A DNA stretch of 64,000 nucleotides from a virus. Its lineage: Duplodnaviria; Caudoviricetes. A model generated the notes under the pieces. It made no database searches, was not told where the DNA came from, and worked only from the letters and a program-made list of their open reading frames with translations. Shown here one piece after another: positions 7,232 through 59,949 of this stretch. Location of the stretch: the IMG/VR virus record IMGVR_UViG_3300010352_001543; one strand, 5' to 3'. The first letter of the stretch is position 1, and every line of letters starts with the position of its first letter. The translations under genes were made by a program, and so were the position numbers.

Positions 7232-7579
7232 TTATCCTTCTTCCGCCCATAAGTCATTACTTACAGAATCTTCCAATTCTTCGTCCGAATACATGAGATC
7301 ATTTCCAGAATATCCTTGATCTAACATGCTTATAAATAAATGTTTTCCATTTTTCTTACCTTTATATCTATAACCGCCTCGCCATGCGCCATCTCCTAAA
7401 TCTAAAAGGCAATAATCCATTTGTGTCCTGAACTCCTTTACAGAACTGACCATGTCTCCGAGTTCAATATTATTATCGTCTAAAATACTGGTGTCCCAAT
7501 GTTTCTTTGGTTTAGATTCATCCAATTTATTTTCATTAATAAATTCATTGAATTTCAATACTTTGTTTTCTGTTTTCAT
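7232..7579 (-). CDS. Leader-tagged small protein (candidate capsid internal protein)
   Basis: MKTENKVLKFNEFINE leader; paralog of the 7659..8007 gene. Confidence 0.7.
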   Translation of the reverse strand: MKTENKVLKFNEFINENKLDESKPKKHWDTSILDDNNIELGDMVSSVKEFRTQMDYCLLDLGDGAWRGGYRYKGKKNGKHLFISMLDQGYSGNDLMYSDEELEDSVSNDLWAEEG

Positions 7580-7647
7580 AATTGTTTTTTTTTTTGTTAA
7601 TAATCTTATATTAATATAAACGTTTATATTTTAAATTTATTGTAAGC

Positions 7648-8036
7648 TTAGACTTGGACTATCCTCTTTCTGCAATCATTCCTTTTTTTATATAATCTAA
7701 TATTGTTTTTTCTCTGAGTTTCATTGTTTCACCTTTGGTAATATCACTATCATGCCATTTATTATCGTCGTCTTGTATCATCCAACTTCTAAATATATAA
7801 TCTCCCATTCTACTGCCAACCACCTACCCAGTTTTTTCCATAATCAAGATTAACAATACAATAATCCATATCTTTTTGTAAGTCTTCTAATGACGTTATT
7901 ACCTCTCCTAATTCTTCACCTTGCTCTTTGAGAATATCCATTCCATATTGATTGGATAATTTACTTTCATTTACGAAATCTTCATATTTCATTACATGTT
8001 TTAACATATTTATTTCTTTTTTAAACTTGGACTATC
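7648..8036. repeat. 16-bp direct repeat (15/16 identical) bracketing the frameshifted gene
   Basis: TTAGACTTGGACTATC at 7648..7663 and TTAAACTTGGACTATC at 8021..8036. Confidence 0.85.
7659..8007 (-). pseudogene. Frameshifted leader-tagged gene, paralog of 7232..7579
   Basis: MLKHVMKYEDFVNES...GGWQ stops at 7810; similarity to the paralog resumes in another frame (RMGDYIFRSW...KGMIAERG*, ending at 7659). Confidence 0.65.
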
Positions 8037-9385
8037 ATCAGTCTCTCGCATACTGGATCGTATTTATCAATCGTTGCCCAAACTTGTGCGGCTATAAAAT
8101 ATTTCTTTTTATCAGCATCCATAACCAACGGACTAAATGAAAATTTATTTAATAGTTTAAAAGTAGGAGCATTGTTAAATAAACTACTTTCTACTTTGAA
8201 ATGGTGAAAATAATTATCCACTTCATTGTTCAAACTGTCATTGATTATAAAGGTACCAGGCAACCACGAAATAGTTCTACAGGAAACTGTACTTTTATTA
8301 ACCTTGAATACAATGTTCTTCACTGTTATATTATCGGTAATTGATTTAACCAATTCTATCCGGTAGTCAATCAATACCCAGTTATTCAATCGTTTAAATC
8401 GAATGTATGAGTTATCGGTTAAATAGACCGGTAGATCCAAATCAATATTTTCTTGCTTTGTAATGTTATTGGTATTGCCACCCATGTTATAAGTGATACT
8501 ATCAATAGTAATTTCATTTGTTTCGTTTAGTACCACATCTCGGTACATCACTTCCCAAGTTTCTGCGTCATCTGTGGTGTCTTCCCAACAAGCGTTCCAT
8601 CCTGTTCTGTCAGGAATTCTGTTGATATTTGGTTTGGTCTGTTTTGTAATATAAAATGTGTTACCAAAGGCAGAAGTATCCTTATTTTCAATATCAATTT
8701 TGAAATATTCGGAACCTTCTTTGAATCTAAATATGGTGTAGTCATCGATAAGTTCAACAATGACCTGGTGATTTTCAATCAAAGAATTTCTAAAACCTTT
8801 TACTCTTAAAATTTCAGTTGTATTATCAAAAGCATCATCCGAAATACTAAACCCACTTTCACAAAGAAAATTATTGTTGTTCTTAGCAAGTTTACTGTTC
8901 ATCAGATGAATGTGTTTACCTCTTCCATCACTATCAGAATTATAAATCTTTAGCTTGTAGTCAGCGGCAACCGTATTGATAACACTTGAACTTTCTAACT
9001 CCTCAAGGAAAGAAGTATTGTCTAAAATTCCTTCACTGTCATCATAAAGATTGGTTAGAAGAATAGACTTATTAGAATATTTATTGGTAACAAGATTGAT
9101 TGTTTGGATCATATCTTCTATAGGCAAATTTAAATCAGTAGCACATAAATTGGATGCTACTAATCTTGACCATTCACTATCACCATCTTCTCCCTTAGGT
9201 CCAACAGGTCCCGGAGGTCCCGGTATGGACTCACCTTGTGGTCCGATTGGTCCAGCAGGTCCTCCACCATTTTCTTGAATCTCTCTGAAATTACGATTGA
9301 ATTTTTCGATCATTTCTTCGAAACCGTCTTCAATGTTCAGGACACTAAGATTTAGATATCTTTTATTGATATAAATTGTATTCAT
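8021..9385 (-). CDS. Putative baseplate/fibre protein with a short collagen-like segment
   Basis: N-terminal EKFNRNF motif followed by GPAGPIGPQG...GPPGPVGPKGEDG (Gly-X-Y). Confidence 0.65.
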   Translation of the reverse strand: MNTIYINKRYLNLSVLNIEDGFEEMIEKFNRNFREIQENGGGPAGPIGPQGESIPGPPGPVGPKGEDGDSEWSRLVASNLCATDLNLPIEDMIQTINLVTNKYSNKSILLTNLYDDSEGILDNTSFLEELESSSVINTVAADYKLKIYNSDSDGRGKHIHLMNSKLAKNNNNFLCESGFSISDDAFDNTTEILRVKGFRNSLIENHQVIVELIDDYTIFRFKEGSEYFKIDIENKDTSAFGNTFYITKQTKPNINRIPDRTGWNACWEDTTDDAETWEVMYRDVVLNETNEITIDSITYNMGGNTNNITKQENIDLDLPVYLTDNSYIRFKRLNNWVLIDYRIELVKSITDNITVKNIVFKVNKSTVSCRTISWLPGTFIINDSLNNEVDNYFHHFKVESSLFNNAPTFKLLNKFSFSPLVMDADKKKYFIAAQVWATIDKYDPVCERLMIVQV

Positions 9386-11536
9386 CTATTCTATTGATAA
9401 TATTTTTAAAATCTTCGGTAAATATTTATTACTTAATGTAACATAATTAGACGAATTATTCTTCATCTTATCATTGTTATTTTCTATACTAATTATATAT
9501 TTGTCTATTAATTCTGTATTATTTATATCTTTTAATAGTGCTATTTGGTTGTCAACGTTTACTGATGCTGCCTTTTCCTTTCCCACCATTGTATAAAGGT
9601 ATGAATCTTCGGTGACTTTGGATGCTTCTTCTCCATCCAAATAACAAACGGTTGAATCAATAATAGGTTTGGAAAATTCAACTTCATTTATTTTAGTTTG
9701 ATAAATGATGTCACCATTTCCATCTTTTATTATTTTACCTTGTACCGGAACACCGTTTATTTTGAAATTACCGATGTCCGAATTCGGTCTAAAATAATAT
9801 CTAAATTTAAAATTATTCCAACTATCGTTTTCATACTGAGACACCATCATAACATTATTTTTAAAAGGAATTGCTTTAAAAAATATATCTTCAAATGAAT
9901 TGAAGGCATCACAAATTGATTGTACAATATCACTTATTTTTTGCTTGGTATTAAAATACGTAAAATAATACGGTGGTTCCTTATAACTAAATTTCAAGTT
10001 AGTATATTCATGTTCATCTATCTTCTGAAAATTACTATCACCGAAATCATACAAGTCAAAAGTTGTTCTGTTTGTTCTTGGATTTTTCCGTAGGTTATAA
10101 ATAGGACTTTCTATATTAATTTCACCGAAATAAATTTTGACCGGCTGGAATTCATCGATTTCTAAATACTCATCTATCTCAACACTTAAAATATATTTGA
10201 TATAATCTCGGGTGTTAGAATTTGCTTGGTGTCTATGGCTAACGTCTTGTAACTCAAATTGACTTGTCTGAAAATGAAATTCAATGTTATTTTGTAGGTA
10301 CGGAGTATATTCAATGAAATCCAAATCATCTCTCGCGATGATTCTATATTCCATGCTGTTATTTACACATCCAGGTGATATACTTAAATAACAACCGTTC
10401 GTAAAAGGTCGAGACAATTCATTATCGATTGTTAAAATTAAATTGCTTGGTATTGAAATATTTTCCACCATGTTTCCAACAACACTTTGGGTAGTTAGTT
10501 CATTACCAAATAACTTATCTATTTTAAAAGCAGATGAATTAAACACCAGTAGATTGAAATATTTTTCTTGAATGGAAATTAATGACGAATACCTATCTAC
10601 TATTGTATAACAATGATCAATATCTAAAATCGGTTCATATGTTGGATAATTCACATTAAGTGTAATTTCGTTTTCTATTTGATTATTTAGATACTTAGAA
10701 TTAATAATATTGTTTTCATTAAAGTTCAGCTTGTAGCGTTTCGCAAAGGTATTATAATCTATATCAAACTTGCAAATTTCTTCTGTCTTAACTAGTAGAT
10801 ATTGGTATTCGTCAAAATCATAATTAGTGTCTTTAAAAAATATTTCAAAATTGAAACAGTTGGAGGAAATCAACTCATATTTTTGGATTTGTTTATTGAA
10901 GTCTTCTTGAGTGAAAGTTTTCTGAACAATGCCGGTTCCTGGATCAATGGTTGTTGTACTATCAAAAAGAAAACTTGTTTTATATGTTTCGTAGTTACTT
11001 GTCTTTGGGCGGATACCATACAAGTCAACCATTGCAGATGACTGAATGAAATCCTCCTTGCTTAAAATTTTGTCGGTGTATGAACCCAAAATATAATTAA
11101 TAAAATCTTTGACATGAAAAGAGTATATGATTTCAGAATTTTTAAAATCCTCCGGGATTAAGGTGTTTGTATTACCGTGAAATTTCTTTTGCTTGTTTCC
11201 TAAAATCAAAATATAATCCGGTAAATCAGTAAGATTAAATTGAACAGCAATTGAAAGACTTTTATCAAAATCAGTTGTTTTATAATACTTTAAATTTTCA
11301 TGAAATTCAATAGGAAAAGAAATAGTTCCGTCTTTGGATACATAAGTCAAATTCCTTCTATTGTAAAACTTTTTAAGATCAGAACTAAAATCAGTAGTGA
11401 TCTTATTTATTTTGTTTTTCTGTTCATCCTCATAGATATCATCAAAAGTTGATATGTAGATACTACTATCGACTATATCAAATTTTAAATTTCCTGTTCG
11501 ATTCAGATTTATATTTGTTTGGATTTTATTAATCAT
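9386..11536 (-). CDS. Large putative virion protein
   Basis: 716-aa ORF whose stop abuts the next start. Confidence 0.65.
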   Translation of the reverse strand: MINKIQTNINLNRTGNLKFDIVDSSIYISTFDDIYEDEQKNKINKITTDFSSDLKKFYNRRNLTYVSKDGTISFPIEFHENLKYYKTTDFDKSLSIAVQFNLTDLPDYILILGNKQKKFHGNTNTLIPEDFKNSEIIYSFHVKDFINYILGSYTDKILSKEDFIQSSAMVDLYGIRPKTSNYETYKTSFLFDSTTTIDPGTGIVQKTFTQEDFNKQIQKYELISSNCFNFEIFFKDTNYDFDEYQYLLVKTEEICKFDIDYNTFAKRYKLNFNENNIINSKYLNNQIENEITLNVNYPTYEPILDIDHCYTIVDRYSSLISIQEKYFNLLVFNSSAFKIDKLFGNELTTQSVVGNMVENISIPSNLILTIDNELSRPFTNGCYLSISPGCVNNSMEYRIIARDDLDFIEYTPYLQNNIEFHFQTSQFELQDVSHRHQANSNTRDYIKYILSVEIDEYLEIDEFQPVKIYFGEINIESPIYNLRKNPRTNRTTFDLYDFGDSNFQKIDEHEYTNLKFSYKEPPYYFTYFNTKQKISDIVQSICDAFNSFEDIFFKAIPFKNNVMMVSQYENDSWNNFKFRYYFRPNSDIGNFKINGVPVQGKIIKDGNGDIIYQTKINEVEFSKPIIDSTVCYLDGEEASKVTEDSYLYTMVGKEKAASVNVDNQIALLKDINNTELIDKYIISIENNNDKMKNNSSNYVTLSNKYLPKILKILSIE

Positions 11537-11547: not shown

Positions 11548-12063
11548 TTAACCATTCATTATTTTATTTTGCATTTGTTCTAAAATTTCTTTAAATAATT
11601 CTCTTGAACCATTAATTTCTTTTCTAATATTATTATCTATCTTATCAAATTTTTGGTATGAATCAATTCTTGTATCTATACTACTATATTCAAATTCAAA
11701 AGCAATAGATCCTTTTGAACTTAATAAAATATCATAATTTGATGTTCCTTTGATGTTTGGATCTGTATTATTATTCAAAAAAGTTTTTACTATCTTAGTA
11801 AAAATAGGAGAATTATTAATTTCATTTATGATATATTTATCGAATTTTATATGTTCTATTTCGTAATCTGGCTTATTACCTTTTGTTTCCGGTTTAAACC
11901 AACGTAGAAAAAATTCATTGTTATAAAAATTCATATAGAATAATAATCTATAATGTTCAAAAAATTTATATGGTTCTGTTGGTTTGAAATCTTCTCTAAA
12001 ACTCTCTTCCGTGTTTAAATTTTCATTTATAAACTCACTAAACTTTTTTAATCGTTGTTCCAT
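11548..12063 (-). CDS. Leader-tagged protein, paralog of 12069..12422
   Basis: Likely start MEQRLKKFSEFINE at 12063; shares FKPTEP and C-terminal KIMNG with its neighbour. Confidence 0.7.
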   Translation of the reverse strand: MEQRLKKFSEFINENLNTEESFREDFKPTEPYKFFEHYRLLFYMNFYNNEFFLRWFKPETKGNKPDYEIEHIKFDKYIINEINNSPIFTKIVKTFLNNNTDPNIKGTSNYDILLSSKGSIAFEFEYSSIDTRIDSYQKFDKIDNNIRKEINGSRELFKEILEQMQNKIMNG

Positions 12064-12068: not shown

Positions 12069-12422
12069 TTAACCATTCATTATTTTGAACTGAATACATT
12101 CTAAAATATAGCCAAATAAATCTTTTGACTTGTTTACTTCTTTGATCATATACTGATCAATAGGAACTTTGTCTTGATATGATTTTCCTTCGTAGTACCA
12201 ATTAAGTTCAATGGAACCTGACCAAAAATCAAAAATAGCAGACACTTTAGCATCTTTCATAAATTTTGCTGGTTCAGTTGGTTTAAAACTATTCTTTATT
12301 CCATCCGCTACACCTTCGTCCAGTATATGATGTTCATTTCTTAGTTGTTCTACTTCTTCGTCTAAAATGAATCCATGTTCTTCATTCATAAATTCATTAA
12401 ACTTTTTTACGTTCTGCTTCAT
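12069..12422 (-). CDS. Leader-tagged protein
   Basis: MKQNVKKFNEFMNEE leader; FKPTEP; ends KIMNG. Confidence 0.7.
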   Translation of the reverse strand: MKQNVKKFNEFMNEEHGFILDEEVEQLRNEHHILDEGVADGIKNSFKPTEPAKFMKDAKVSAIFDFWSGSIELNWYYEGKSYQDKVPIDQYMIKEVNKSKDLFGYILECIQFKIMNG

Positions 12423-17066: not shown

Positions 17067-17459
17067 TTATTTTATTGTCTTTTGTAAAATTTTGATCATT
17101 TCTTCTACTTGATCTTTGGTTACAGGAATACTTAGGGTGTCTATATCTGCCCAAATATTAATATAAAAAAGATTTCTATCAATTAAATCATTATCTACAT
17201 CATTTCCTTCACTGTCATTTAAGCCATATTTTTCAGCTGAACATACAGACATTTCACATTTATGTTTATAACTATCCATTAGCATAAAATCAGCACCATT
17301 TTTATTTGTACTTATTTTATGGTTTTTCACTGCATCAGCTTCCACGTTACAGCCTTCTGATTCCAATTCTTTAATGACGGTTTCTTTTAGAGATTCGTTA
17401 ATACTGTTGTTTAGACTTTCATTTGTGAAGTCATTGAATTTTTTAACTCTGTTTTCCAT
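17067..17459 (-). CDS. Leader-tagged small protein
   Basis: MENRVKKFNDFTNESLNNSINES leader. Confidence 0.7.
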   Translation of the reverse strand: MENRVKKFNDFTNESLNNSINESLKETVIKELESEGCNVEADAVKNHKISTNKNGADFMLMDSYKHKCEMSVCSAEKYGLNDSEGNDVDNDLIDRNLFYINIWADIDTLSIPVTKDQVEEMIKILQKTIK

Positions 17460-18463: not shown

Positions 18464-19836
18464 TCTGTAATATTTTGTTTTAATATATACTTTATATAAG
18501 AAAAACATAAAATAGTTTATATAAAACTCAATGGTCCAAGTAGAACAACATATAGTTAACAAATCAAACAGCAGTAAGAATGACTGGCAAGTGATTGATC
18601 ACTTAGCATTCTTATCTAAGAACTTGTACAACACTTGCCTATGGACCATCAAAAATCATTTTGAAGCAACCGGAAAGTGGATGCGATACAACGAAATGTA
18701 TAGAAAGTTTTATACCGAGCAAACGCCTGCTTTTATTGCTCTTCCAGCCGCGTCTGCTCAACAAATCATGATGGTGATGGATAAAAATATGAAGAGCTAC
18801 TTTGCTCTGCTAAAAATGTATAGAAAGAACAAAAAATTGCTGACCGGTTGTCCTCAGTTTCCTAAGTACAAAGATAGTATAAAAGGTAGAAACATAATTG
18901 TTTTTACTTCACAACAAATGAGACTACAAAAAGATGGAATAATTAATTTTCCGAAGAAGTCTGACTTGAGACCATTAAAGACTAAAATTCCAGTTGGTAG
19001 TCTAAAACAAGTTAGGATCATTCCTCAGTCATCTTGCTATGTCATAGAAGTTGTTTATGAAAAAGAAGCCATTCAAGCGTTTCCATCAAATGATTCATGG
19101 TTGTCTATTGACTTAGGAATCAACAACCTAATGACCTGCTTTGATACAGTTTCCAGCAAACCAACTATCATCAACGGCAAGCCACTTAAATCCATCAATC
19201 AATTTTACAACAAGAAACATGCTAAACTTCAGTCACGATTACAAAAACAGTACCCTAAACGACGTAAGTCAAAGAAACTAACAAAATTAACAACAAAAAG
19301 AAATCGTAAAATCAAAGACTACCTCCACAAGAGCTCCAGGTTTGTAGTCAATTATTGCTTGGAATCAGGCATCTCTAACATTGTAGTAGGTTACAACGCT
19401 GAGTGGAAACAAAACGTCCAGCTTGGCAGTAAGAACAACCAAAACTTTGTTCAGATTCCTTTCTTAACACTAATAAACCAGTTAGAATATAAAGCAGCGT
19501 TGCTTGGCATCACTGTTGTAAGGAACGAAGAATCCTACACCAGTAAGTGCTCAGCGATGGACCTCGAACCAGTTGAAAAACATGACACCTATTGCGGTGA
19601 GCGAGTTAAACGCGGCATGTTCAAGAGTTCAACCGGCCAGTCGATCAATGCTGACTTAAACGGAGCCATCAACATTCTTCGAAAAGTAGCTGGAGATAAG
19701 GAACCTGTAATGACTGTTGTAAAGCAGTGGGTTCAAACTCAATCCAGTATAGGTCAAGTCGTTTGGCCGTTTCATACATGTATGAATAAATAGTTTTTGT
19801 TTTTAAATAAAAATTGATACGATATTTATAATTCAA
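18464..19836 (+). mobile_element. Non-autonomous tnpB-only IS element, ends tentative
   Basis: No tnpA in the window; TTGAT at 18459..18463 and TTCAA at 19832..19836 resemble an ISDra2-type TAM and right end but may be chance in AT-rich DNA. Confidence 0.4.
18531..19793 (+). CDS. tnpB: IS200/IS605-family (IS1341-like) RNA-guided endonuclease TnpB
   Basis: SKNLYN N-terminus, RuvC-I SIDLG, VVGYN..WKQ, EESYTSKCS, RuvC-III NADLNGAINI; visibly higher GC than the flanks; antisense to the surrounding operon. Confidence 0.92.
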   Translation: MVQVEQHIVNKSNSSKNDWQVIDHLAFLSKNLYNTCLWTIKNHFEATGKWMRYNEMYRKFYTEQTPAFIALPAASAQQIMMVMDKNMKSYFALLKMYRKNKKLLTGCPQFPKYKDSIKGRNIIVFTSQQMRLQKDGIINFPKKSDLRPLKTKIPVGSLKQVRIIPQSSCYVIEVVYEKEAIQAFPSNDSWLSIDLGINNLMTCFDTVSSKPTIINGKPLKSINQFYNKKHAKLQSRLQKQYPKRRKSKKLTKLTTKRNRKIKDYLHKSSRFVVNYCLESGISNIVVGYNAEWKQNVQLGSKNNQNFVQIPFLTLINQLEYKAALLGITVVRNEESYTSKCSAMDLEPVEKHDTYCGERVKRGMFKSSTGQSINADLNGAINILRKVAGDKEPVMTVVKQWVQTQSSIGQVVWPFHTCMNK

Positions 19837-24549: not shown

Positions 24550-24981
24550 TTAATATTCAGATTTTATATGTTTATACAACTCTAACAGTCCTTCAACAAT
24601 TCCAGCTTCCATGCCACTATTTATTTCGAAGTTATCTACAGGAACATATTTTTTAATTATATTAGGTTCAATTTTAATTGGTTCATTTTCTATAGTGATT
24701 ATACAATTAATTTTTTCACCTATTTCCATCCAAAATGATAACATATCTCTTTTAGTTCCGTTTTTAAAATAAAGATACATTTCCATTTCATAGCCATCGA
24801 ATTTTATGGTATCATAAGTGACTGAAATTTCTGTTGGTTTAGGTGCATATTTAAATTTGAAATTTGAAATTAATTTTTTTATTTCTTCTTTCATATTTTT
24901 ATCAGCTACCGTTATAAGAGCTTCATTCAAATGTTTATTTTCATTCATAAAACTATCGTAATCTTTTACAATTTTTTTCAT
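24550..24981 (-). CDS. Leader-tagged protein (Y-x-x-KP subfamily)
   Basis: MKKIVKDYDSFMNENKHLNEA leader; body similar to 28145..28585. Confidence 0.7.
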   Translation of the reverse strand: MKKIVKDYDSFMNENKHLNEALITVADKNMKEEIKKLISNFKFKYAPKPTEISVTYDTIKFDGYEMEMYLYFKNGTKRDMLSFWMEIGEKINCIITIENEPIKIEPNIIKKYVPVDNFEINSGMEAGIVEGLLELYKHIKSEY

Positions 24982-25000: not shown

Positions 25001-25390
25001 TTAGATATGTTTGGAAATAATATTGTTTGCTTTCGTTATTATTTCCAAATGATCTAATTCATCATTATAATATGTCTCGAAATATTTTTCTGTGTCACTT
25101 GAAAATTTATTTTTGTTAGGTTTAAAATTAGGAAATGACATATAAGACGAAAGCACATTACTGTAAAAATCTTGAACCTCATCATCCAATTCAATTTCTA
25201 ATGAAGCGTAGTTTTTCTTTACTTCATCAGGATCCATTCCTTTAAATTTGTTTGATAGCTTATCAATTGTTTTAATTAATTCATTCACTGCCTTGATATC
25301 AATGGATGACCAAATAAAATTATCATCTTCAGTTCTTTTTTGAATTGCTTCATTTAGAAATTCATTAAATTTCATCACAAATTTTTTCAT
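25001..25390 (-). CDS. Leader-tagged small protein
   Basis: MKKFVMKFNEFLNEA leader. Confidence 0.7.
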   Translation of the reverse strand: MKKFVMKFNEFLNEAIQKRTEDDNFIWSSIDIKAVNELIKTIDKLSNKFKGMDPDEVKKNYASLEIELDDEVQDFYSNVLSSYMSFPNFKPNKNKFSSDTEKYFETYYNDELDHLEIITKANNIISKHI

Positions 25391-25806: not shown

Positions 25807-26433
25807 TCATGGCTGTTCGTATTTCAAACCTACTAAACCACGAATTGATAAAATTCCAAGAGGACTGAATATTTGTCGTTGTCTCTTGAAAACACCTCCA
25901 CCGTTTGCTTGACTTCCAGTTGTTCCAGAAGAAGTGTTGAATTCAATTGTTACTATCCATCCTGCTTCACCTACTGCTACTATTCTTCCAATATGCCCCG
26001 AACTTGCATCTTTTCTACTTCTCCAAATAATCAGATCATTTACTTGAGGAACAAAGTCTGTTTTCTTTCCAATTTGTTTTGCTCTAATGAACCAGTACTG
26101 TGAACTTGCACAAGAACGTGCAACAAAAGGAATTTCTATTTTTGGACTTTTGTTGAGTTCAAGAGCTGCCCTACTAAGACAATAATACTGTCCTGCTCCA
26201 CAATATTTAATCGGCGAATGTAGTCCAACTGATGCTATGTAATCAATTACTTTTCCGCCCCAGTTTGGTTGTTTTTCAACCGTTCCTACTTGTTCATAAA
26301 GTATTTGATTGGAAAGTAATACAATTTCTCTATCAATCGGAACCTCATAACGGGCAACTAATGTTTTACCTGAAGAAAGTTGAATTGATAGAGAAATTAG
26401 AAGGAATGTTAAAATGAATTTTATAGTTTTCAC
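25807..26433 (-). CDS. CHAP-domain peptidoglycan hydrolase with an N-terminal signal peptide (endolysin candidate)
   Basis: MKTIKFILTFLLISLSIQLSSG signal; catalytic Cys in YCGAG, His in GHIG, TIEFNT. Confidence 0.75.
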   Translation of the reverse strand: MKTIKFILTFLLISLSIQLSSGKTLVARYEVPIDREIVLLSNQILYEQVGTVEKQPNWGGKVIDYIASVGLHSPIKYCGAGQYYCLSRAALELNKSPKIEIPFVARSCASSQYWFIRAKQIGKKTDFVPQVNDLIIWRSRKDASSGHIGRIVAVGEAGWIVTIEFNTSSGTTGSQANGGGVFKRQRQIFSPLGILSIRGLVGLKYEQP

Positions 26434-26444: not shown

Positions 26445-27395
26445 TTATTTAAAATTAAACTCATAATCTGCATATAACATATAAATATCTAATAATTTAT
26501 TAACAAGATTAGAATTATCTATACGCTTATCGAAATATTTTTTGAATTGTTGTTCTTTCATATCTAAATAAGTAACTGTACTGACTTCGTCAGTGATGAT
26601 ATATAAATATCTGTTATTATGAACAGACGAAGTTATAATTTTCCCATTATCTAATTTAATGATTATATCATAATCATCAGGAGAATTGATAGTTCCTTTG
26701 GCGTGTTTTACTTTTACTCTTGGTGGTTTTGGTTGATAGTCAAAAGAATTTAATGTTTTAATTATAGCGTCTTCAGCTGCTTCATCTGTCGAAGTAATAG
26801 TTACGCTTTCATTGATATTATCATATGAACGGGATTCATTAGTTGGTTCGTTCGAAACTATTTTTTCAATCTTGTCTATTTCATCTGAAATGTATTTGAC
26901 TTGTTTTAATAGCTGATCTTCAATAACCTTCAATTTAGGTTTAATATCCGATCTACCATTGACAACAACAGTTTGTGTTTTTATATCCGCTAAAATATTT
27001 AAATTAGTTACTGTAAAACTCGAAGTTCCGCCACGTTCATCTTCAAAGTTTTCTTCGAACCAACTTGTAGGATAAATACTGACAGAATATAAATTAACGA
27101 TCCGGGAAAGATTGTTGAATAAATCCTCGCTAATCATGTCTTCAACTTCCCAAATTCTTTTGTGATCTTCTTTGGTGTTAAGTTGCATTTCCCATCCACC
27201 ATTAAAAGGTTGAACTTTTAATTTAAAAGATTTAAAAACTCCAATTTTTTCAAATTTCTTAAAAGCTGCTTCAAGTGGTTTTTGAATCTTAAATATGGTC
27301 GCTTTGATAGCATCTGACGCCATAGCGGATTCGTTTGATTCATTAACAAACGATTCATTTATGAATTCGTTGTATTTCATTATTTTCTCTTTCAT
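26445..27395 (-). CDS. Leader-tagged two-domain protein with an internal leader-like linker
   Basis: MKEKIMKYNEFINESFVNESNES leader; internal TNESRSYDNINES; C-terminal half similar to 28145..28585. Confidence 0.7.
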   Translation of the reverse strand: MKEKIMKYNEFINESFVNESNESAMASDAIKATIFKIQKPLEAAFKKFEKIGVFKSFKLKVQPFNGGWEMQLNTKEDHKRIWEVEDMISEDLFNNLSRIVNLYSVSIYPTSWFEENFEDERGGTSSFTVTNLNILADIKTQTVVVNGRSDIKPKLKVIEDQLLKQVKYISDEIDKIEKIVSNEPTNESRSYDNINESVTITSTDEAAEDAIIKTLNSFDYQPKPPRVKVKHAKGTINSPDDYDIIIKLDNGKIITSSVHNNRYLYIITDEVSTVTYLDMKEQQFKKYFDKRIDNSNLVNKLLDIYMLYADYEFNFK

Positions 27396-28144: not shown

Positions 28145-28585
28145 TTATTTTGTTCCATCTAACCAGTGTTCGTAAAAACTAAGAACTATGTTTAGTATGT
28201 TTGAAGGTTCTACATTACTGAAATATTTTTTTAGTGTTTTGCTGTCTACCTTATAGTAAGTTTCCGTTCCGAATTTATTAGAAACAAAATAATTATATTT
28301 TCCTTTTGCACATACTGCTGAAATCCATTGATTGTTACTCATTTGTAATTCTATATCAAATTCATCTTCTGATTTAATATCAACATTCATTGAAGTGATA
28401 TATATTGGTTTTGATACATATCTCCAAGCATTTAGTTCTTGTTTTAATATAAGTTCTAAATTGTCTGCTTTTTCAATTGCTGGATCTACCTTCAGATTCA
28501 TTCCTTCATTCAAAGAATATCTACGGGATTCATTGGTTGATTCATTTATGAATTCATTATATTTTAATACTTTTTCTTTCATCAT
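28145..28585 (-). CDS. Leader-tagged protein (Y-x-x-KP subfamily)
   Basis: MKEKVLKYNEFINESTNESRRYSLNEG leader. Confidence 0.7.
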   Translation of the reverse strand: MMKEKVLKYNEFINESTNESRRYSLNEGMNLKVDPAIEKADNLELILKQELNAWRYVSKPIYITSMNVDIKSEDEFDIELQMSNNQWISAVCAKGKYNYFVSNKFGTETYYKVDSKTLKKYFSNVEPSNILNIVLSFYEHWLDGTK

Positions 28586-28603: not shown

Positions 28604-29017
28604 TTATTTAGTAAAATAAGTTAAAGCATTTATATCTTTACCTTCTTCCAGTTTAGCAGCCATTTCTTTTAACAAGTCAGACATTTGTGACCAGCCAACA
28701 GGACCATTATTTTTCATGATGAATTTAGCTAACTTGATTGCTACATCGTTATAGCCTCTTGTTATGTAAGAGAAATCTTCGTCTAAAGATTCATTGGCTT
28801 CATTTCCAGGTTCATCCGGCCATTCTTTCTTAATTTCGCTAAAGAATTTCTTCTTTTCTGAATCGTCCAGTTCATCAGGTGAGTTGACATCATAGTCAGC
28901 CAATTTTTCTTTGAAGAACTTTTGGTATGCTTTTTGTTCCGCACTTAACTCTTCTTCATTTAAAGTGTTAATAAATTGGTCCCAATTTTTCACGTATTGT
29001 GTTTTCATAATTTTCAT
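28604..29017 (-). CDS. Putative prohead core-like protein with a leader variant
   Basis: Directly downstream of the portal gene; YQKFFKEKL...SPDEL...KKKFF..IKKEW motif recalled from T4-like head-region proteins; YVKNWDQFINTLNEE leader; own AAATATATA promoter at 29036..29044. Confidence 0.55.
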   Translation of the reverse strand: MKIMKTQYVKNWDQFINTLNEEELSAEQKAYQKFFKEKLADYDVNSPDELDDSEKKKFFSEIKKEWPDEPGNEANESLDEDFSYITRGYNDVAIKLAKFIMKNNGPVGWSQMSDLLKEMAAKLEEGKDINALTYFTK

Positions 29018-29046
29018 TTTATTTTATTTTTAATCTATATATTTCT

Positions 29047-30624
29047 TTACCAAGAACTTCCACCGCCATTTGTTTCGGCATCCACTAATTCTGGATTGTT
29101 TTCTTTTTCTCTGTCTAAGTACTCTTGATTTGCTTTTAGTTCTTCATCACTGAAACCTAAATATTTCTTCACTAAATAGGTAGCTGAGAAAATTCCACCT
29201 GTTTCCAATCCTAATTCTTTCAACGCATTTACATATTCCAAACGTTTATTAACAATATCCATTTGTTTTAAATCTTCAAAAATATTATTGGAGTTGAATT
29301 GTAATCCGAGGTTTTCTTTGAATAGGAAATCTCCAGCTAATTCAGGAAAATCTAAAATTGTTTGTATGTATAATGGTTTAGTTATAATTTCTTGGAACAA
29401 CGAACGAAGTCTTGAAATAAATCTACTAAATCTCACTTCATCCCTGGTGACTGAATTTGCACTGTCATATGAGTAACCATCTGTATTTCCTTCATCGAAT
29501 CGAGACATAGGAATACCAGATTCTACTCTAAGTTTATGTCTAAAATATTCAATGATATCAACATTTTGTAAATCAGGTCCATTTTCTTCAAGTGTTTCAA
29601 TTTCTGAATGTTCACCGTCTCTGTCCGGTAGCATATAATTTTTATAGAATGGAATATTTGCTTTACCGTTTATAGCAAGTTCCCCTGAATTCATGTCCAA
29701 GTCAAAATCTTCTTTGTACATTGCCTTTAATTCACCAAGTGTTTCACGAGCATCTTTACGTGACTGACTACCAATTGGAATAATCATTTTTATTCTGTAG
29801 GTAGAATGCATTATGTTCCAGATAACTCTTGAGTTTTCTAACAACCTTAAAATATTAAATGACCTAACCAGTTTCTCAAGGTATGAGTATTTTTGATTTA
29901 AATTGTTTTTGTTATATGAGATATAAATAATTTGGGAGTCAAGAAGAGTTCTTTTTATTAGAGGTTCATTTTCGTACTGCGTCCATACTTTTCTATAGGA
30001 TCCGTTTATCTTCATAACATCCGGTTTCAATGAGAATGGATCTATTTGGGAGAAACCAATTATCTTTGTTTGTTCCTTATTGAAAATAATTTCAAATGCT
30101 AACATTCCTTCAATTAAAAATTGTTTAAATAGTTGGTTACCACTAACACAATCAGAAAAATAAAAATAATTATAAATCTTTTTGAAATTAATATTTATTT
30201 TATCTAATACATCCTGAACTGCTGACTTCTCTGTATTTAGAAATGGTAAGATCATCGATAAGTCCGGTTTACAGAAATAGTTTTGATTGTCATATATAAT
30301 TGCTTCATCCGCTATAGTGTCAAGAATCATTTCTATTTCACCATTAGTAGCAAAGTCGTTTAAAATATCTCGACGAGCGGGATACTCTTGGTCGAAGAAA
30401 GCAATAAGTTTCTTATCACCAATATCAGAACTCTTTAAAGCATAAAGTAAATCTTTATCGTAACTATTGTATGCTGCTCCCATCATCATTTCTGTCGGGG
30501 AAACTGTCATACTTTGTTTTAAGACTTCGTCATTAAATTCTAAACCATAATTACCTAACTTTTTAAGAAGGGATTTCATAAAATTGTTAGATTGGTCGTT
30601 CGTTCTATCTACAAAACCTGCCAT
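29047..30624 (-). CDS. gp20: T4 gp20-like portal vertex protein
   Basis: IADEAI, SYLEKLVRSFNILRLLENSRVIW, SEIETL, DIIEYFRHKL..ESGIPMSRF, TRDEVRFSRFISRLR; 525 aa. Confidence 0.93.
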   Translation of the reverse strand: MAGFVDRTNDQSNNFMKSLLKKLGNYGLEFNDEVLKQSMTVSPTEMMMGAAYNSYDKDLLYALKSSDIGDKKLIAFFDQEYPARRDILNDFATNGEIEMILDTIADEAIIYDNQNYFCKPDLSMILPFLNTEKSAVQDVLDKININFKKIYNYFYFSDCVSGNQLFKQFLIEGMLAFEIIFNKEQTKIIGFSQIDPFSLKPDVMKINGSYRKVWTQYENEPLIKRTLLDSQIIYISYNKNNLNQKYSYLEKLVRSFNILRLLENSRVIWNIMHSTYRIKMIIPIGSQSRKDARETLGELKAMYKEDFDLDMNSGELAINGKANIPFYKNYMLPDRDGEHSEIETLEENGPDLQNVDIIEYFRHKLRVESGIPMSRFDEGNTDGYSYDSANSVTRDEVRFSRFISRLRSLFQEIITKPLYIQTILDFPELAGDFLFKENLGLQFNSNNIFEDLKQMDIVNKRLEYVNALKELGLETGGIFSATYLVKKYLGFSDEELKANQEYLDREKENNPELVDAETNGGGSSW

Positions 30625-30700: not shown

Positions 30701-31594
30701 TTATGTAATGATCGGATCAATCAAATTGAAATTTGGTTTAATCAACTGAAATAATTCTTTGTGTTCAGTTTCTTCTGACACGTTGTTCTTCGATAAAACA
30801 GTTCCATTAACTGCATCAGCAGTACTCCAACTTTCTGTTGAAGAAGAACCATTTATTTCTCCATTTGAGTTCTGGATAGAAGATTTTTTAGAAGAGGCGA
30901 GATTGTCCGGATAAGAAGTTGATTGTCCTGCCACGTAATTACTATCTTCTGATAACTTTCCATTTGAATTGATTTTTAGAGGACTTTTTCCATAGTTTGG
31001 AGGAGTGTTATAAGTGAGGTCATCCGACCCTTTATCAGAGTACCATTTAGCTGCTGGGTTATTTTTTCCAGATGGTCCATTTGGATAACCATTACTGCTA
31101 TTTGTTTTGTTGTAGTAAGTAGTATAAGCTGCAATTTTTACACTCTGTCCTGACCAAAGAACATAGTCCTTTTTTCTTCTTCCAGCGTGTGAAGGAGTAA
31201 CATCAATGAAATCTTGTTCAGTTAATTTTCCACCGTTCTGTTTTATTTTTCGAGCTAAAGCAGTACAGTTGCCGTGTTGATAAGCAACATCACAAAGCGC
31301 ATCAAATTGATACTGGGTAAGACTATCCGGATTGATATCAAAATTTTTTAAAGCTCTAACAACCCGCTCGGTGTATGCACCGGCAGCAACTGAATAAAAA
31401 TGATTCTTTGCTTCTGTGATTGAGTTGTACATTGAGGACGGTTTAGTACCACTATGAATACCAAAACCAATTGTCCACTCAGCACCGCCTGACTTGGCTT
31501 TTAAATTATATGCTCTGATTTTTCCGTCAGGACAAACACAGCCAAGCGCCTCAAACCCCATTATAAAATCCGCACCGAATTTACTAATTACCAT
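30701..31594 (-). CDS. GH24-like lysozyme with a low-complexity C-terminal tail (probably tail-associated)
   Basis: ISKFGADFIMGFE, AY...WTIGFG, LTQYQFDAL..VAYQHG, RRKKD. Confidence 0.75.
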   Translation of the reverse strand: MVISKFGADFIMGFEALGCVCPDGKIRAYNLKAKSGGAEWTIGFGIHSGTKPSSMYNSITEAKNHFYSVAAGAYTERVVRALKNFDINPDSLTQYQFDALCDVAYQHGNCTALARKIKQNGGKLTEQDFIDVTPSHAGRRKKDYVLWSGQSVKIAAYTTYYNKTNSSNGYPNGPSGKNNPAAKWYSDKGSDDLTYNTPPNYGKSPLKINSNGKLSEDSNYVAGQSTSYPDNLASSKKSSIQNSNGEINGSSSTESWSTADAVNGTVLSKNNVSEETEHKELFQLIKPNFNLIDPIIT

Positions 31595-31599: not shown

Positions 31600-32424
31600 T
31601 TAACCTTTCCCTTTTTCAAATGGATAAACCAATTTATCAACCGGTAACATACCTCCTGAAGTTTTAGCGGTATCGGAACCCTTTATAGATGACAAGGAAC
31701 CTTGAATTTCAAATGCTCCTAAATTAGAAGAATTTTGGTAACTACCAGCTTCCGCTCTAATCTTACTACTTCTATTGTATTGTTGACTAAGTCCAGAATC
31801 ATAATAATTTCTTAGTCCAAAAGTTTCTTTTCCAGCGGCTTCAAACTCTGCTGGTGATAATTTAGGTAACCCCTTTTTTAGTGACTCATTGTCTTCTGGC
31901 CAAATTTTATAGTAACCTTTAAAATATCTGCCTTTTGCTGGATTTTTTACCTCCGCCCATGTTAGACGTTTCACAGAAGAAACACCACCGTTTCTATCTT
32001 GTGGTCTTCTTGCTGATGTATTTCCTTCAGCTGTCATAATCCCTGTGGTAGAAACAGCTACAACAACACCAGTATGTCCTGTTCCATCTCCATTCGACCA
32101 ACTGATAGCAACACCCGGAACAGCTTCTTTATAATTCTTAGAAAAAAGACCAGCTCCGGAGTGTTGGGAACTTGCACTATAATAACTTCTTCTTGGTTGA
32201 TTGTAATTGAAATGCTTGTCTGTCCAATAAGAAGTAGAAGTCACGAAACTAGCACACCAGGGATTTCCATCCCGGTGAGGAGAAGCATTTTCACTCTTTA
32301 ACCATTTAGTTAATAAAGGTCCTCTGTTGTCTCCGCCTGATTCATAGATATAATTAGTTTTTCCTCCATCAAATGTTAGAATCCAATTACAAAGCCAAGC
32401 TCTTTTTTCTGCCGCTGATGCCAT
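31600..32424 (-). CDS. CHAP-domain hydrolase (probably tail-associated)
   Basis: NRGP, PWCASFV, GHTGVV, TAEGNTS. Confidence 0.8.
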   Translation of the reverse strand: MASAAEKRAWLCNWILTFDGGKTNYIYESGGDNRGPLLTKWLKSENASPHRDGNPWCASFVTSTSYWTDKHFNYNQPRRSYYSASSQHSGAGLFSKNYKEAVPGVAISWSNGDGTGHTGVVVAVSTTGIMTAEGNTSARRPQDRNGGVSSVKRLTWAEVKNPAKGRYFKGYYKIWPEDNESLKKGLPKLSPAEFEAAGKETFGLRNYYDSGLSQQYNRSSKIRAEAGSYQNSSNLGAFEIQGSLSSIKGSDTAKTSGGMLPVDKLVYPFEKGKG

Positions 32425-39204: not shown

Positions 39205-39474
39205 CTATATTTTTGTTAAATATTTATCTAAAATGTTTAGTATATCATCACCTTTTCTAAATTCACCATGATTTGGATAAAGGAAATCCCAGTCATCCTC
39301 GTCTTCTTCAAATTTAATGCCAAAGTTCTTTAAAAGTTTAAATTGAATATCATATTTATCTTTTTGTGTCTTAGGTTTGCTGGTTACATTAGAAGTTAAC
39401 CAAGCAAGAACATCTTTTTCTTTTGCTTCTTCGTTTAAAACAAACGATCCACTGAGTTGAGTGTATTTTTTCAT
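39205..39474 (-). CDS. Leader-variant small protein
   Basis: Likely start MKKYTQLSGSFVLNEE at 39474, downstream of the promoter motif at 39493..39501. Confidence 0.6.
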   Translation of the reverse strand: MKKYTQLSGSFVLNEEAKEKDVLAWLTSNVTSKPKTQKDKYDIQFKLLKNFGIKFEEDEDDWDFLYPNHGEFRKGDDILNILDKYLTKI

Positions 39475-39506
39475 ATGTCGAATCTTTTTCTTTATATATT
39501 TGTTTA

Positions 39507-55617: not shown

Positions 55618-55621
55618 TTTG

Positions 55622-55822
55622 CTATTTCCTTTGATTGTTTTGATATAATGAGCAACTTTGTTCAGTCGCCTTTTGATTATTTAATTGTTCTGCAAGATAA
55701 ATTCTCAGTCCTTTTCGAACTGTATGAATTGTTTGTCTTCTTAAACATCCGTATTTAGAAGACGTTTCATTTTTAAAAATATTGTCACAACCAAGACAAA
55801 ATTGATCAGGATTTTTTACCAT
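55622..55822 (-). CDS. Small Cys-containing hypothetical protein
   Basis: CLGC...C...C. Confidence 0.45.
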   Translation of the reverse strand: MVKNPDQFCLGCDNIFKNETSSKYGCLRRQTIHTVRKGLRIYLAEQLNNQKATEQSCSLYQNNQRK

Positions 55823-56816: not shown

Positions 56817-57061
56817 GTTTTAAATTACTTTGTATTAGTTGTTAATTTGCTAATTTGTTCCAATAAAAATTCAGTCGAGATTGTCATCGATTCTGAACCT
56901 CTGCCACCCCATCCATGATCCCAATTAAATTCAATTTCAATTTTCACCTTCATCTTTTAAAGTAATCATGAAATCACTGTCATACCTTTTAGCAGTTATC
57001 CAGATTTCATTTGTAGAAGAAGGGCGGTAAAAATGTTCTTTAATTATTAAATCATCCATTG

Positions 57062-57514: not shown

Positions 57515-57517
57515 CTT

Positions 57518-57859
57518 CTAATTCTCCTTATTTGGAATATAACCACAACCTTCATATTCGCGTCCGCCACCGGGTAAATCTTTTCTGATTTGAAATTCTT
57601 TGTCGGAACAATCCGAACAAATTATTTCGTCAGTGAACCAACTCATTATTCTTGAGACAAGAGGAGCACCGCATCTATCACAATTTGTTTGTGTGAAGAA
57701 GGTATCTGCATGTTTTTCGTTATTCATATTACTGTTTATATCTAATTGATTATTACGTGACTTTATGCTACACTCTTTGCATAAAATTCTTATTGGTGTA
57801 TCCCAACTGCCCATATGATCTGTTAGCGCACCGCATTTATCGCATGGTAAATAAGCCAT
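57518..57859 (-). CDS. Double zinc-ribbon protein
   Basis: CDKCG...CKECS and CDRCG...CSDCS. Confidence 0.7.
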   Translation of the reverse strand: MAYLPCDKCGALTDHMGSWDTPIRILCKECSIKSRNNQLDINSNMNNEKHADTFFTQTNCDRCGAPLVSRIMSWFTDEIICSDCSDKEFQIRKDLPGGGREYEGCGYIPNKEN

Positions 57860-57899
57860 GATTTATCTCTGTTTATTTTGTTTAAAAATATTAATATCT

Positions 57900-58202
57900 T
57901 TAGTCATCAAAAGATTGCCATATAACTTTGCCATCTTTCCACCATCCAAAATCATATTCATCTAATGGGTATTCGATAGGAATTACAAACATCTTAAATG
58001 TTCTTTCTTTTTCAATTAACCTCAATCTATTGTTAAGTTGATAGAAAGTAACATCAATTCCAAATTGGCAATTATTTGATTCAACATCTGCGAATACTGC
58101 AGCGTTCCAGTTTTGTAATCTTATTTTGTCTTCTGTCCTTACTATAATATCCATTTTATTTTCTCCACTTGCTTGGTAACGGTTTAATGTCTTTACGAGC
58201 AT
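57900..58202 (-). CDS. Hypothetical protein
   Basis: Open frame; start probably at MDIIVR. Confidence 0.5.
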   Translation of the reverse strand: MLVKTLNRYQASGENKMDIIVRTEDKIRLQNWNAAVFADVESNNCQFGIDVTFYQLNNRLRLIEKERTFKMFVIPIEYPLDEYDFGWWKDGKVIWQSFDD

Positions 58203-58527
58203 CCTTATCCGCCCACATTAATTCTTTACATATTAGATTCTGTCTATCAATTATAGCATCAATAGATTTGAGTTCTATGCCGAAGAACTCATCTATTTCA
58301 ACTTTTTTGTCCCACTTAGAAATTGCTTCAATATCTTTTGCTTTAAGATCTCCTCTCATGATTTTGATATTGATTTCTTTAATGACGTAGTCATTGCAAG
58401 TAACAATTACATCATCTGCTTTAAATTCTACATTCTGAATCCATTCGTAAAGCGCAAATGGGTTCATCGTCTTTTCTGGAAATACATAAGTTCCTTTTTG
58501 AAACTCGTCAGTAAATATAATTTTCAT
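58156..58527 (-). CDS. Hypothetical protein
   Basis: 123-aa ORF. Confidence 0.55.
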   Translation of the reverse strand: MKIIFTDEFQKGTYVFPEKTMNPFALYEWIQNVEFKADDVIVTCNDYVIKEINIKIMRGDLKAKDIEAISKWDKKVEIDEFFGIELKSIDAIIDRQNLICKELMWADKDARKDIKPLPSKWRK

Positions 58528-58529
58528 TT

Positions 58530-59099
58530 TTAATAGCCGTATAAATTTCGAAAAAGTTGACTTTCTTTAAACTCAATTTTGATTTCTTTTAATACATGAA
58601 ACATATGTACATTCATCCAGTTTTCCATTGCATCAGCATCGCTACCATGAAGTCCTATCAATATTCCTGGTCGGTGAGAAGTAACCCTAACAATAAATCT
58701 GTCATCTAATTCAGCAACTTCAATATCAGTGACATTCAAAAACATAGTAGGATTTTTTGATTTTTCTGTGAAGTGACAATCTAAGAACTGTTTTAGAGTT
58801 TTACGGAATTCCTTATCATCTGTTCGATTGAGTTTTTTGTCTTGAAACAATTTTTCTTTACCGATAGTAATACAATCCAAACAAGTCCATTTTCCATCTC
58901 TGCGAGTTTCACCTCCGTCAATTTTCTTGAGTTCTCCACACACACATAAGCGAAAATTATATTGAAAACAATCTTTGTGATAATATTTGCCTTTATGTTC
59001 TGTCATTTCTAATCCTGTTGCGATTTCATATCCACAAACTTCACAATACATTGGCTCCTTTTCTGGACTTGTAATTCCTAATTCTTTTGCTGGTGGCAT
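58530..59099 (-). CDS. Zn-binding domain fused to a ribosomal protein uS3-like type II KH domain
   Basis: CEVCG...HKDC, CVCG...CLDC; VRVTSHRPGILIGLHG versus uS3 VTIHTARPGIVIGKKG. Confidence 0.7.
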   Translation of the reverse strand: MPPAKELGITSPEKEPMYCEVCGYEIATGLEMTEHKGKYYHKDCFQYNFRLCVCGELKKIDGGETRRDGKWTCLDCITIGKEKLFQDKKLNRTDDKEFRKTLKQFLDCHFTEKSKNPTMFLNVTDIEVAELDDRFIVRVTSHRPGILIGLHGSDADAMENWMNVHMFHVLKEIKIEFKESQLFRNLYGY

Positions 59100-59101
59100 T
59101 T

Positions 59102-59320
59102 TTATTTCTCCTTAATTTCCACTGGAAAGAAATCAGCTAAAGAATTTCTCATCAATTCAATTGATTCTTTCACAGAATCAAATAAAAAAGTACGACAATA
59201 TGCTTCAGCATTTTCTAATTCAATTGTGGAATTCAATAATTTCATATCCGCTGAATAATCCAAAAGATCATTTTCGATAGATAGTTTATTCTGTTTTTTG
59301 TCTAAGTAAATATAATACAT
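59102..59320 (-). CDS. Hypothetical early protein
   Basis: First gene after cassette copy B. Confidence 0.6.
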   Translation of the reverse strand: MYYIYLDKKQNKLSIENDLLDYSADMKLLNSTIELENAEAYCRTFLFDSVKESIELMRNSLADFFPVEIKEK

Positions 59321-59435
59321 TTTTTAATCCTAAAATTATTAGTGTTGTTATTTAATTTATATAGTATAGACGTCACTGATGGAATTTTATTGTAAATAAA
59401 AAGAAAGAATTTCAAAATAAATTGAAATTCTTTCT
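59321..59435 (-). promoter_or_regulatory. Terminator-promoter-RBS cassette, copy B
   Basis: Hairpin 59402..59435, TTTACAATAAAATTCC, CGTCTATAC, CTAATAATTTTAGGA. Confidence 0.82.
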
Positions 59436-59437
59436 GA

Positions 59438-59600
59438 TGATAGGAGCAGGATTCGAACCTACATGAAGCGTACCAAGTGGATGTTATGCCATCTCTTCAC
59501 TGTCAGGCCTCCGTTTTGCGTTCGGAGCCAAGCTCATCGCTGAATGCTTCTTAGTTATGAGCCATATATTAGCGTCTAAAACCAATTCCGCCATCCTATC
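59438..59600 (-). ncRNA. tRNA-like RNA (163 nt) with three hairpins in place of the anticodon/variable arms
   Basis: Acceptor GATAGGA/TCCTATC + A; D-arm GCG-GAATTGGTTTTAGA-CGC; T-arm GTAGG-TTCGAAT-CCTGC; ~109-nt structured insert. Confidence 0.8.
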
Positions 59601-59613
59601 AAAATATAATATT

Positions 59614-59949
59614 CTACTTTTTTAAATATTTTTTAATTGTCGCTAACATAACATAATCAGGAACAGCATATTCGAAATAACCATCCAAAGTATTACTTAA
59701 TTCGGAATAATCGGAGGTAGGACGATTATTTACAAAGTCTTTCTTTTTAGCTATAGCTAAAATTTCTGTAGCAACATTTTTAATATAATTTAGTTTATCT
59801 TGTACCGATTGTGAACGATCCATTAGTACAAGTTTACCACGTAAATCTTGTATATGATCCATGACATCAGAAGTTTTCTTATATCCTATATTAACAGCCA
59901 ATCCATTTTCGTTTAAAAATTCATTGCTTGTCATTACATATTTTTTCAT
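59614..59949 (-). CDS. Leader-tagged small protein in the early region, with its own late-type promoter
   Basis: MKKYVMTSNEFLNE leader; TAATATATA at 59976..59984. Confidence 0.7.
   Translation of the reverse strand: MKKYVMTSNEFLNENGLAVNIGYKKTSDVMDHIQDLRGKLVLMDRSQSVQDKLNYIKNVATEILAIAKKKDFVNNRPTSDYSELSNTLDGYFEYAVPDYVMLATIKKYLKK

Follow-up and report, generated by a model that had tools for sequence, protein, structure and literature searches.

In bacteriophage T4, the internal proteins IPI, IPII and IPIII and the protein Alt carry a capsid-targeting sequence (CTS) that gp21, the prohead protease, cleaves off (Mullaney and Black, 1996; reviewed in PMC9026906, PMC3012670 and PMC5694885). According to PMC9026906, the first ten residues of IPIII are enough for packaging; residues 4 and 7 of the tag are the main determinants of targeting, residues 8 and 10 govern processing, and gp21 cleaves after L/I-x-E. 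Here, we describe a 64-kb stretch of DNA from a large uncultured phage (the window; from IMG/VR record IMGVR_UViG_3300010352_001543, Duplodnaviria, Caudoviricetes), in which a dispersed family of small genes shares an N-terminal leader that closely resembles this tag. Our analysis indicates that the shared N-terminus is likely a T4-type capsid-targeting propeptide that is cut off after N-E, and that the phage probably carries a large injected protein cargo of about 25 otherwise unrelated small proteins; that this cargo consists of effectors is less certain. The principle is already known from T4. What stands out is the near-identity to the T4 tag at great phylogenetic distance, the size of the repertoire, and the resemblance between the tag and a scaffold repeat.

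Two further groups of phages offer points of comparison. T-even phages have at least ten internal proteins (Ips) in all (Repoila et al, 1994, as cited in PMC12373910), and Ip1-3 of T4 each inhibit a distinct GmrSD (PMC12373910 and PMC3012670). These injected anti-restriction proteins are variable, resemble one another only in the leader and are recognised by it, which is also true of the family described here. Their genes are, however, grouped at a small number of hotspots in closely related coliphages, whereas the present genes are dispersed and belong to a very distant phage that probably infects Bacteroidota. In the giant phages phiKZ, 201phi2-1 and SPN3US, many head proteins are likewise cut after Glu, by a diverged gp21 homologue, and paralogues with conserved N-termini occur (PMC5694885 and PMC9026906). 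The cleavage motif in those phages is S/A-x-E, in contrast to the T4-like one, and the propeptides often exceed 100 residues; a short portable T4-like tag on dozens of unrelated proteins is not described for them. A literature search for the motif strings retrieved the T4 CTS itself only, and no description of CTS-type tags in huge phages was found in the papers searched.

A recurrent leader on otherwise unrelated genes

In reverse complement, the window corresponds to positions 75496-139495 of a 161,592-bp IMG/VR virus contig, which CheckV estimates to be 71% complete. The G+C content is ~31%, and nearly all genes of the window lie on its minus strand. Genes are labelled by position, with w for window coordinates and g for contig (genome) coordinates.

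We searched the six-frame translation of the window with the strict motif [FYS][NESD][EDS]F[IMLVT]NE. All ten matches fell on the coding (minus) strand, 8-38 residues past an in-frame stop, and none was internal. A position matrix, iterated across the 161.6-kb contig and used with a cut-off of 16.9, returned 26 matches, 24 of which were within 40 codons of an upstream stop (binomial P = 1.5e-22 for N-terminal placement, relative to the 8% of residues located close to a called start). The motif is thus far from equally frequent at internal positions, whereas equal frequency there and in early genes is what the original prediction had named as refuting. At a lower threshold of 11, there were 27 matches compared with 0-7 in residue-shuffled six-frame translations, and an origin by chance or composition was rejected on the shuffles together with the N-terminal position. 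A looser motif, applied to all ORFs (open reading frames) of at least 50 aa in the whole contig, matched 11 N-termini and four sites in the scaffold part of the protease ORF described below, and nothing elsewhere.

With weaker variants included, the contig contains 28 candidates, of which 12 lie within the window; we graded ~23 of the contig members as strong and five as weak. The family of "about 12" members that had been proposed from the window is therefore real but undercounted, because at least 13 more members are located outside it. An identical copy of one member was found on a 280,711-bp contig, and the full genome therefore probably contains more leader genes. All 12 ORFs listed in the original prediction were recovered on the minus strand with the N-termini given there. 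The window members, with their matrix scores where assigned, are:

7232..7579, minus strand: leader gene w7232, 115 aa, starts MKTENKVLKFNEFINE; score 27.4
7810..8007, minus strand: leader gene w7810, 65 aa, short paralogue of w7232, starts MLKHVMKYEDFVNE; score 24.0
11548..12063, minus strand: leader gene w11548, 171 aa from the ATG at 12063, starts MEQRLKKFSEFINE; body paralogous to w12069; score 22.5
12069..12422, minus strand: leader gene w12069, 117 aa, starts MKQNVKKFNEFMNE; score 27.7
17067..17459, minus strand: leader gene w17067, 130 aa, starts MENRVKKFNDFTNE, with a second INE site further on; score 22.8
24550..24981, minus strand: leader gene w24550, 143 aa, starts MKKIVKDYDSFMNE, followed by LNE; score 20.9
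25001..25390, minus strand: leader gene w25001, 129 aa, starts MKKFVMKFNEFLNE; score 30.1
26445..27395, minus strand: leader gene w26445, 316 aa, starts MKEKIMKYNEFINESFVNESNES
28145..28585, minus strand: leader gene w28145, 146 aa, starts MMKEKVLKYNEFINESTNES...SLNE; score 26.6
28604..29017, minus strand: weak variant w28604, 137 aa, directly downstream of the portal gene, starts MKIMKTQYVKNWDQFINTLNEE; score 5.5
39205..39474, minus strand: weak variant w39205, 89 aa from the ATG at 39474, starts MKKYTQLSGSFVLNEE; score -3.3 in the fixed register
59614..59949, minus strand: leader gene w59614, 111 aa, in the non-structural part of the window, starts MKKYVMTSNEFLNE; score 28.9

Some of these gene models depart from the earlier ones. 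For w39205 the correct start codon is the ATG at 39474, and for w11548 it is probably the ATG at 12063. The span 7659-8007, which had been taken as a single member, comprises two ORFs in different frames: the leader ORF at 7810-8007 stops at TAG, the following ORF at 7659-7823 is in another frame, and jointly they resemble w7232-7579. Because of this second frame the copy appears split, and it may represent a split or broken paralogue of w7232. The variants at 28604 and 39205 are present but weak by their scores; w39205 fits an F[IV]LNE sub-type that is also seen in g151575, g153077 and g153905.

The claim that the leader precedes mostly unrelated bodies was borne out by BLASTP. After removal of the first 22 residues, similarity was confined to three small paralogue groups (w28145/w26445/g901, w12069/w11548 and w7810/w7232). 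Sites of the form [ILMVFT]NE are 5.8-fold enriched in the 30 residues past the leader (P = 5e-5), while the rest of the bodies shows no enrichment, with seven sites, near the proteome rate. Codon usage in the leader is free: among 21 leaders, the invariant Phe is encoded by TTT in 10 and by TTC in 11, and five residues, encoded by nine different codons, occur at the hydrophobic position. Since synonymous codons vary at conserved residues, selection acts on the peptide rather than on the DNA.

Correspondence to the T4 tag and the head machinery

The N-termini read from the T4 genome (NC_000866) are MKTYQEFIAE for IPII and IPIII, and MKTFKEFTST for IPI. We aligned the 21 leaders with the T4 sequence on the terminal Glu. 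Phe at T4 position 7 is present in all 21 leaders, and position 8 is one of [ILMV] in 20; Glu at position 10 is in register in 18 leaders and shifted by one residue in the other three, and position 4 is aromatic in 13. The T4 IPII/IPIII leader scores 12.0 on the matrix, which was built from this phage alone. In both systems, small proteins that are non-essential and unrelated to one another carry a short tag at the N-terminus; the key residues (an aromatic residue, Phe, Ile/Leu and the terminal Glu) are shared, and the tag ends in hydrophobic-x-Glu. The systems differ in the middle residue of this triplet, which is almost always Asn here, and in that a third of the leaders, including the sub-type of w59614, has no aromatic residue at T4 position 4. 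They also differ in number, with 23-28 tagged genes in this partial genome compared with three IPs plus Alt in T4.

Within T4 itself, the 54-aa protein gp61.1 (NC_000866 18966-19130, minus strand), annotated as "hypothetical", starts MKTFKEFIKE and fits the CTS pattern; its matrix score is 11.5, compared with 12.0 for IPII/IPIII.

The T4 protease, portal and capsid-protein families are all represented in the genome. Two of the corresponding genes are:

29047..30624, minus strand: portal protein of the T4 gp20 family (PF07230, 1.3e-69; phrog_213), which marks the head-morphogenesis module
genome C1:158874-160742, minus strand, outside the window: protease-scaffold fusion encoded by a 622-aa ORF (PF03420, 1.1e-10)

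The third, a gp23-family capsid protein (PF07068, 2.2e-33), is also encoded on the contig outside the window. The first ~200 residues of the 622-aa ORF form a gp21-family S77 prohead protease, behind which lies a long repeat-rich tail; a protease fused to its scaffold distinguishes this phage from T4. In BLASTP alignments, GEVDHP pairs with GELNHP of T4 gp21 and ISSRSAG with VSSRGLG, so that His and Ser are kept and the catalytic pair of the S77 protease is, as judged from this alignment, intact. Tenacibaculum phage PTm1 also has such a fusion, annotated as "prohead core scaffolding protein and protease". The capsid protein contains LNE at residues 3-5 and 49-51, both ahead of the stretch aligning with T4 gp23 from residue 93; the T4 gp23 cut site follows residue 65. 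Its closest database relatives, with 29-41% identity, come from an uncultured 462-kb phage, Prevotella Lak phages, and Flavobacterium and Tenacibaculum phages. Based on the portal, capsid and protease families and the nearest capsid relatives, the phage is, by homology, a distant member of the T4 head lineage and probably infects Bacteroidota. The portal gave no match either at the DNA level (its region, against GenBank phages) or as a peptide pattern (against IMG/VR), and no close relative is therefore at hand for gene-by-gene comparison.

The scaffold part of the protease ORF consists of ten tandem 14-residue repeats of the form [YH]x[ED][YH][LI]xEx[LV][DN]xx[IL]x. Each repeat opens with a heptad like the leader core (Y-S-E-Y-L-S-E compared with [FY]-N-E-F-[IL]-N-E), and scaffold repeats of the same 14-residue type occur in a 294-kb relative. 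Together with the looser-motif matches in the scaffold, this repeat structure indicates that the leader resembles one repeat unit; as such a look-alike, a tagged protein could enter the core by this route.

These observations can be combined into a scheme, every step of which we infer from T4 homology. Leader genes would be expressed together with the head genes, and the leader of 10-16 residues, with its core [FY]-N-E-F-[ILMV]-N-E, would bind the prohead scaffolding core built by the protease-scaffold fusion protein. The tagged protein would thereby be enclosed in the gp23-type shell, where the S77 (gp21-family) protease would cleave behind the Glu in [ILMV]-N-E and often again at another xNE a few residues on. 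The mature body, freed in the head, would stay with the DNA and exit with it at infection. Given its small size and its independence of the body, the tag would turn any ORF that acquired it into cargo, which would explain the ~25 unrelated bodies in this one phage.

A bolder version, which we regard as possible but doubtful, holds that the tag copies one scaffold repeat unit, that this holds from T4 to phages of several hundred kb, that the tag is spread inside genomes by a ~70-nt promoter-plus-leader cassette, and that the entire injected proteome of this group of large, mostly uncultured phages can be read from sequence. In that case, a protein with one unit would co-assemble into the scaffold array and be freed by the same cut, and the injected proteome would amount to dozens of proteins per phage, including enzymes of the ADP-ribosyltransferase fold.

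Tagged bodies and related leaders in other phages

One of the modelled bodies belongs to a member outside the window:

genome 24800-25303, plus strand: leader-bearing 167-aa protein g24800, with invariant Y-H-x-T, S-F-T-R and E

A model of the g24800 family has a pLDDT of 86, with the leader disordered. Its best PDB matches in Foldseek are the Tpt1/KptA RNA 2'-phosphotransferases and the DarT DNA ADP-ribosyltransferases (probabilities near 1, E-values from 1.4e-3, TM-scores of 0.4-0.5), and the sequence profile gives a weak match to DarT1 (E = 0.19). We therefore predict, with moderate confidence, that g24800 is an enzyme of the ADP-ribosyltransferase fold, which recalls Alt of T4; it is the only member on the contig with a recognisable enzyme fold. 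The protein has 50 homologues, and all 32 that were aligned carry a short leader ending in x-E directly before the invariant KQVG.LYH.T block.

The second body with a wide family is that of w26445. A word-index search retrieved near-identical copies only, and an exhaustive search revealed ~40 homologues of its N-terminal domain (residues 22-182); the 36 aligned homologues keep a leader and an NE site, and the leader in this family is followed by a double xNE site. In both families, the conserved domain starts directly behind the final Glu of the leader. The domain folds confidently in the model, and a Foldseek search of this well-folded domain against the PDB gave no match. The overall architecture of w26445 is composite: the N-terminal domain is like g901 and ~40 proteins of ~170 aa in other phages, the C-terminal half is like w28145, and the poorly predicted linker between the halves contains TNES...INES. 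The protein looks like two cargo modules joined. Over the family as a whole, a PHROGs search with all 28 members matched two PHROGs, one member each and neither informative, and a protein-atlas search with w11548 found nothing.

The tagged proteins could instead be accessories of the prohead core or scaffold, like T4 gp67, gp68 and gp22. They would then co-assemble by means of the leader, be chopped by the protease and leave the head undelivered. Several members lie directly downstream of the portal gene, the place of T4 genes 67 and 68, and the multiple xNE sites past the leader, the likeness of the leader to one scaffold repeat unit, and the conservation of the w26445 family within T4-like head modules all accord with such a role. 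On the other hand, the bodies have no xNE excess beyond the first 30 post-leader residues, where only the seven sites mentioned above occur, and they would therefore survive as intact proteins. The compact, enzyme-like model of g24800 and the ~25 unrelated bodies also fit poorly with a structural role, and many members, equipped with a promoter motif of their own, are located a long way from the head genes. Taken as an account of the whole family, we consider a core role unlikely, and favour the view of the leader as a targeting propeptide on packaged cargo.

To follow the leader into other phages, we scanned IMG/VR for K-[FY]-N-E-F-x-N-E. The motif matched at least 101 contigs; among the matches listed, about half were N-terminal, of the form M-x(0-4)-K[FY]NEF.NE, and the others fell in a few conserved proteins with an internal copy of the motif. 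We chose 15 longer contigs with N-terminal matches for a closer look. Most of these are fragments that CheckV places at 6-30% completeness, which indicates very large phages. Two of the 15 records, of 640 kb and 294 kb, reach 90% completeness or more; both encode an S77 protease and Gp23, and so do two canonical marine T4-like fragments, whose capsid proteins are most like those of Methylophilales phage Melnitz and Pelagibacter phage Mosig. In the 294-kb phage, at least 26 N-termini follow the pattern M-x-N-[IL]-P-T-[FY]-E-E-F-[ILV]-N-E. The 462-kb phage (GenBank LR756500) has ten pattern matches compared with one for a control pattern, and a pattern check of Lak-B5 gave essentially none.

One homologue of w26445 belongs to a T4-like head module with terminase, portal and protease genes, in which a 207-aa S77 protease is encoded four genes upstream of it. 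Small genes near it carry other recurrent leaders, such as MKKSELRQIIKEE; these different leaders suggest that each lineage may have its own version of the tag. In two metagenome contigs of another T4-like lineage, which carry a homologue of w26445, the N-termini MKKS[ED]LR[QK][IM]IKEE and W[RK]K[FL]LNEGK recur on small genes around the S77 protease.

The 294-kb relative also bears on whether the leader serves as a recognition sequence for a modifying enzyme, such as a radical SAM maturase that acts on many precursors. One radical SAM protein is encoded on our contig (genome 33505-33876), but the leader genes extend over ~150 kb and are mostly far from this single gene, and the leader fits the T4 CTS at genetically mapped positions. 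The 294-kb phage, with its at least 26 leader genes, has no PF04055 match, yet encodes S77 and Gp23. As the tagged genes show no consistent co-occurrence with such an enzyme, the radical SAM explanation was rejected, and we give it hardly any credence.

If the tag works as in T4, the injected proteins of this phage and of its uncultured large relatives could be listed from sequence. Candidate first-minute effectors could then be catalogued, whether they act against defence or modify the host, and one of them would be ADP-ribosyltransferase-like; they would come from a group that probably infects Bacteroidota and in which no such proteins are known so far. The loading signal of T4 would, moreover, prove to be old and portable throughout the gp20/gp21/gp23 lineage, which bears on protein-delivery tags.

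Upstream motifs and counter-evidence

The sequence AATATATA occurs 28 times on the genome plus strand. It resembles the T4 late promoter, TATAAATA, and may itself be a late promoter. The association of leader genes with this motif, which had been proposed as a check, was found: it lies 15-90 nt upstream of 10 of the 28 leader genes and of 7 of the 225 other genes (odds ratio 17, P = 6e-7). Copies also precede the protease-scaffold gene and several structural genes. Three members of the window had been credited with a late-type promoter of their own, and each has the motif close to its start:

29036..29043, minus strand: AATATATA, 26 nt upstream of the w28604 ATG
39493..39500, minus strand: AATATATA, 26 nt upstream of the w39205 ATG
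59976..59983, minus strand: AATATATA, 34 nt upstream of the w59614 ATG

The motif itself is thus in place, but the label "late" was not backed up and should be read as putative, because a search of this partial contig with T4 gp55 found no gp55 homologue.

Some members share a longer conserved stretch. A promoter/5'UTR-like (5' untranslated region) module of ~70 nt, TTACAATAAAA ... ACGTCTTTAATATATAA ... TAAATA ... TAACAAAAAAAAGTAAA, is found upstream of genome positions 901, 72380, 73347, 151575 and 153077, and partly at window 59950-60020. This module raises the question of whether the leader is a feature of the DNA, either a cassette of promoter and 5' gene end that recombination has spread or a favourable AT-rich translation start, with the peptide itself devoid of function. 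Such an explanation would account for the module before five or six members, and among seven of these genes the first 45 nt have a mean identity of 0.56 compared with 0.33 for the body; a G+C content of 31% also favours codons for Lys, Asn, Phe, Ile and Glu. Most members, however, do not have the module, residue shuffles do not reproduce the motif, and the same peptide occurs in distant phages with 21-45% G+C. Spread of a cassette accounts for movement of the tag, but not for conservation of the peptide, and the free synonymous variation at conserved residues led us to reject a cassette-only origin on the codon data; we judge it very improbable. Selection for the peptide as a targeting and cleavage signal remains the better account.

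Several observations nevertheless weigh against this account. As regards the tag, eight of the 21 leaders have Arg or Ser in place of the T4 targeting residue Tyr4, and Asn as the middle residue of the cleavage triplet is without T4 precedent. As regards the promoter, AATATATA also precedes all four TnpB genes of the contig, and the absence of a gp55 match noted above belongs here as well. As regards the relatives, a search of the nearest cultured ones, Tenacibaculum phage PTm1 and Flavobacterium phage MaF61, found essentially no copies of the motif, and virion data from these phages can therefore not be borrowed. As regards function, most bodies have no predicted one, and a Pfam search with ten of them assigned no family. 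Finally, the members adjacent to the portal gene may belong to the core and be broken down instead of delivered. The proposal of a portable T4-type targeting and cleavage leader is well supported, if indirectly, by the motif, the head genes, the selection on the peptide, the leaders of homologues and the link of leader genes to AATATATA, but for the portal-adjacent members a role in the prohead core would serve equally well.

The window further contains genes for a gp2-like DNA end protector, for lysozyme and CHAP proteins, and several very large ORFs without a known family; its non-structural part encodes glycosyltransferases and an NAD-dependent ligase. ARAGORN and Rfam searches found no RNA genes in the window. 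Just upstream of the portal gene are genes for a lysozyme (30701-31594) and a second CHAP protein (31600-32424). The other CHAP-domain protein (window 25807-26433, minus strand), which has a signal-peptide-like N-terminus, MKTIKFILTFLLISLSIQLSSG, lies among the leader genes of the head module. The contig also carries four copies of TnpB/OrfB_IS605 (PF01385, PF07282), at window 18531-19793 (plus strand) and genome 1-772, 7644-8903 and 146053-147300. One of these copies is cut by the contig end, and each is preceded by TTTTGTTTTAATATATAC, which contains AATATATA.

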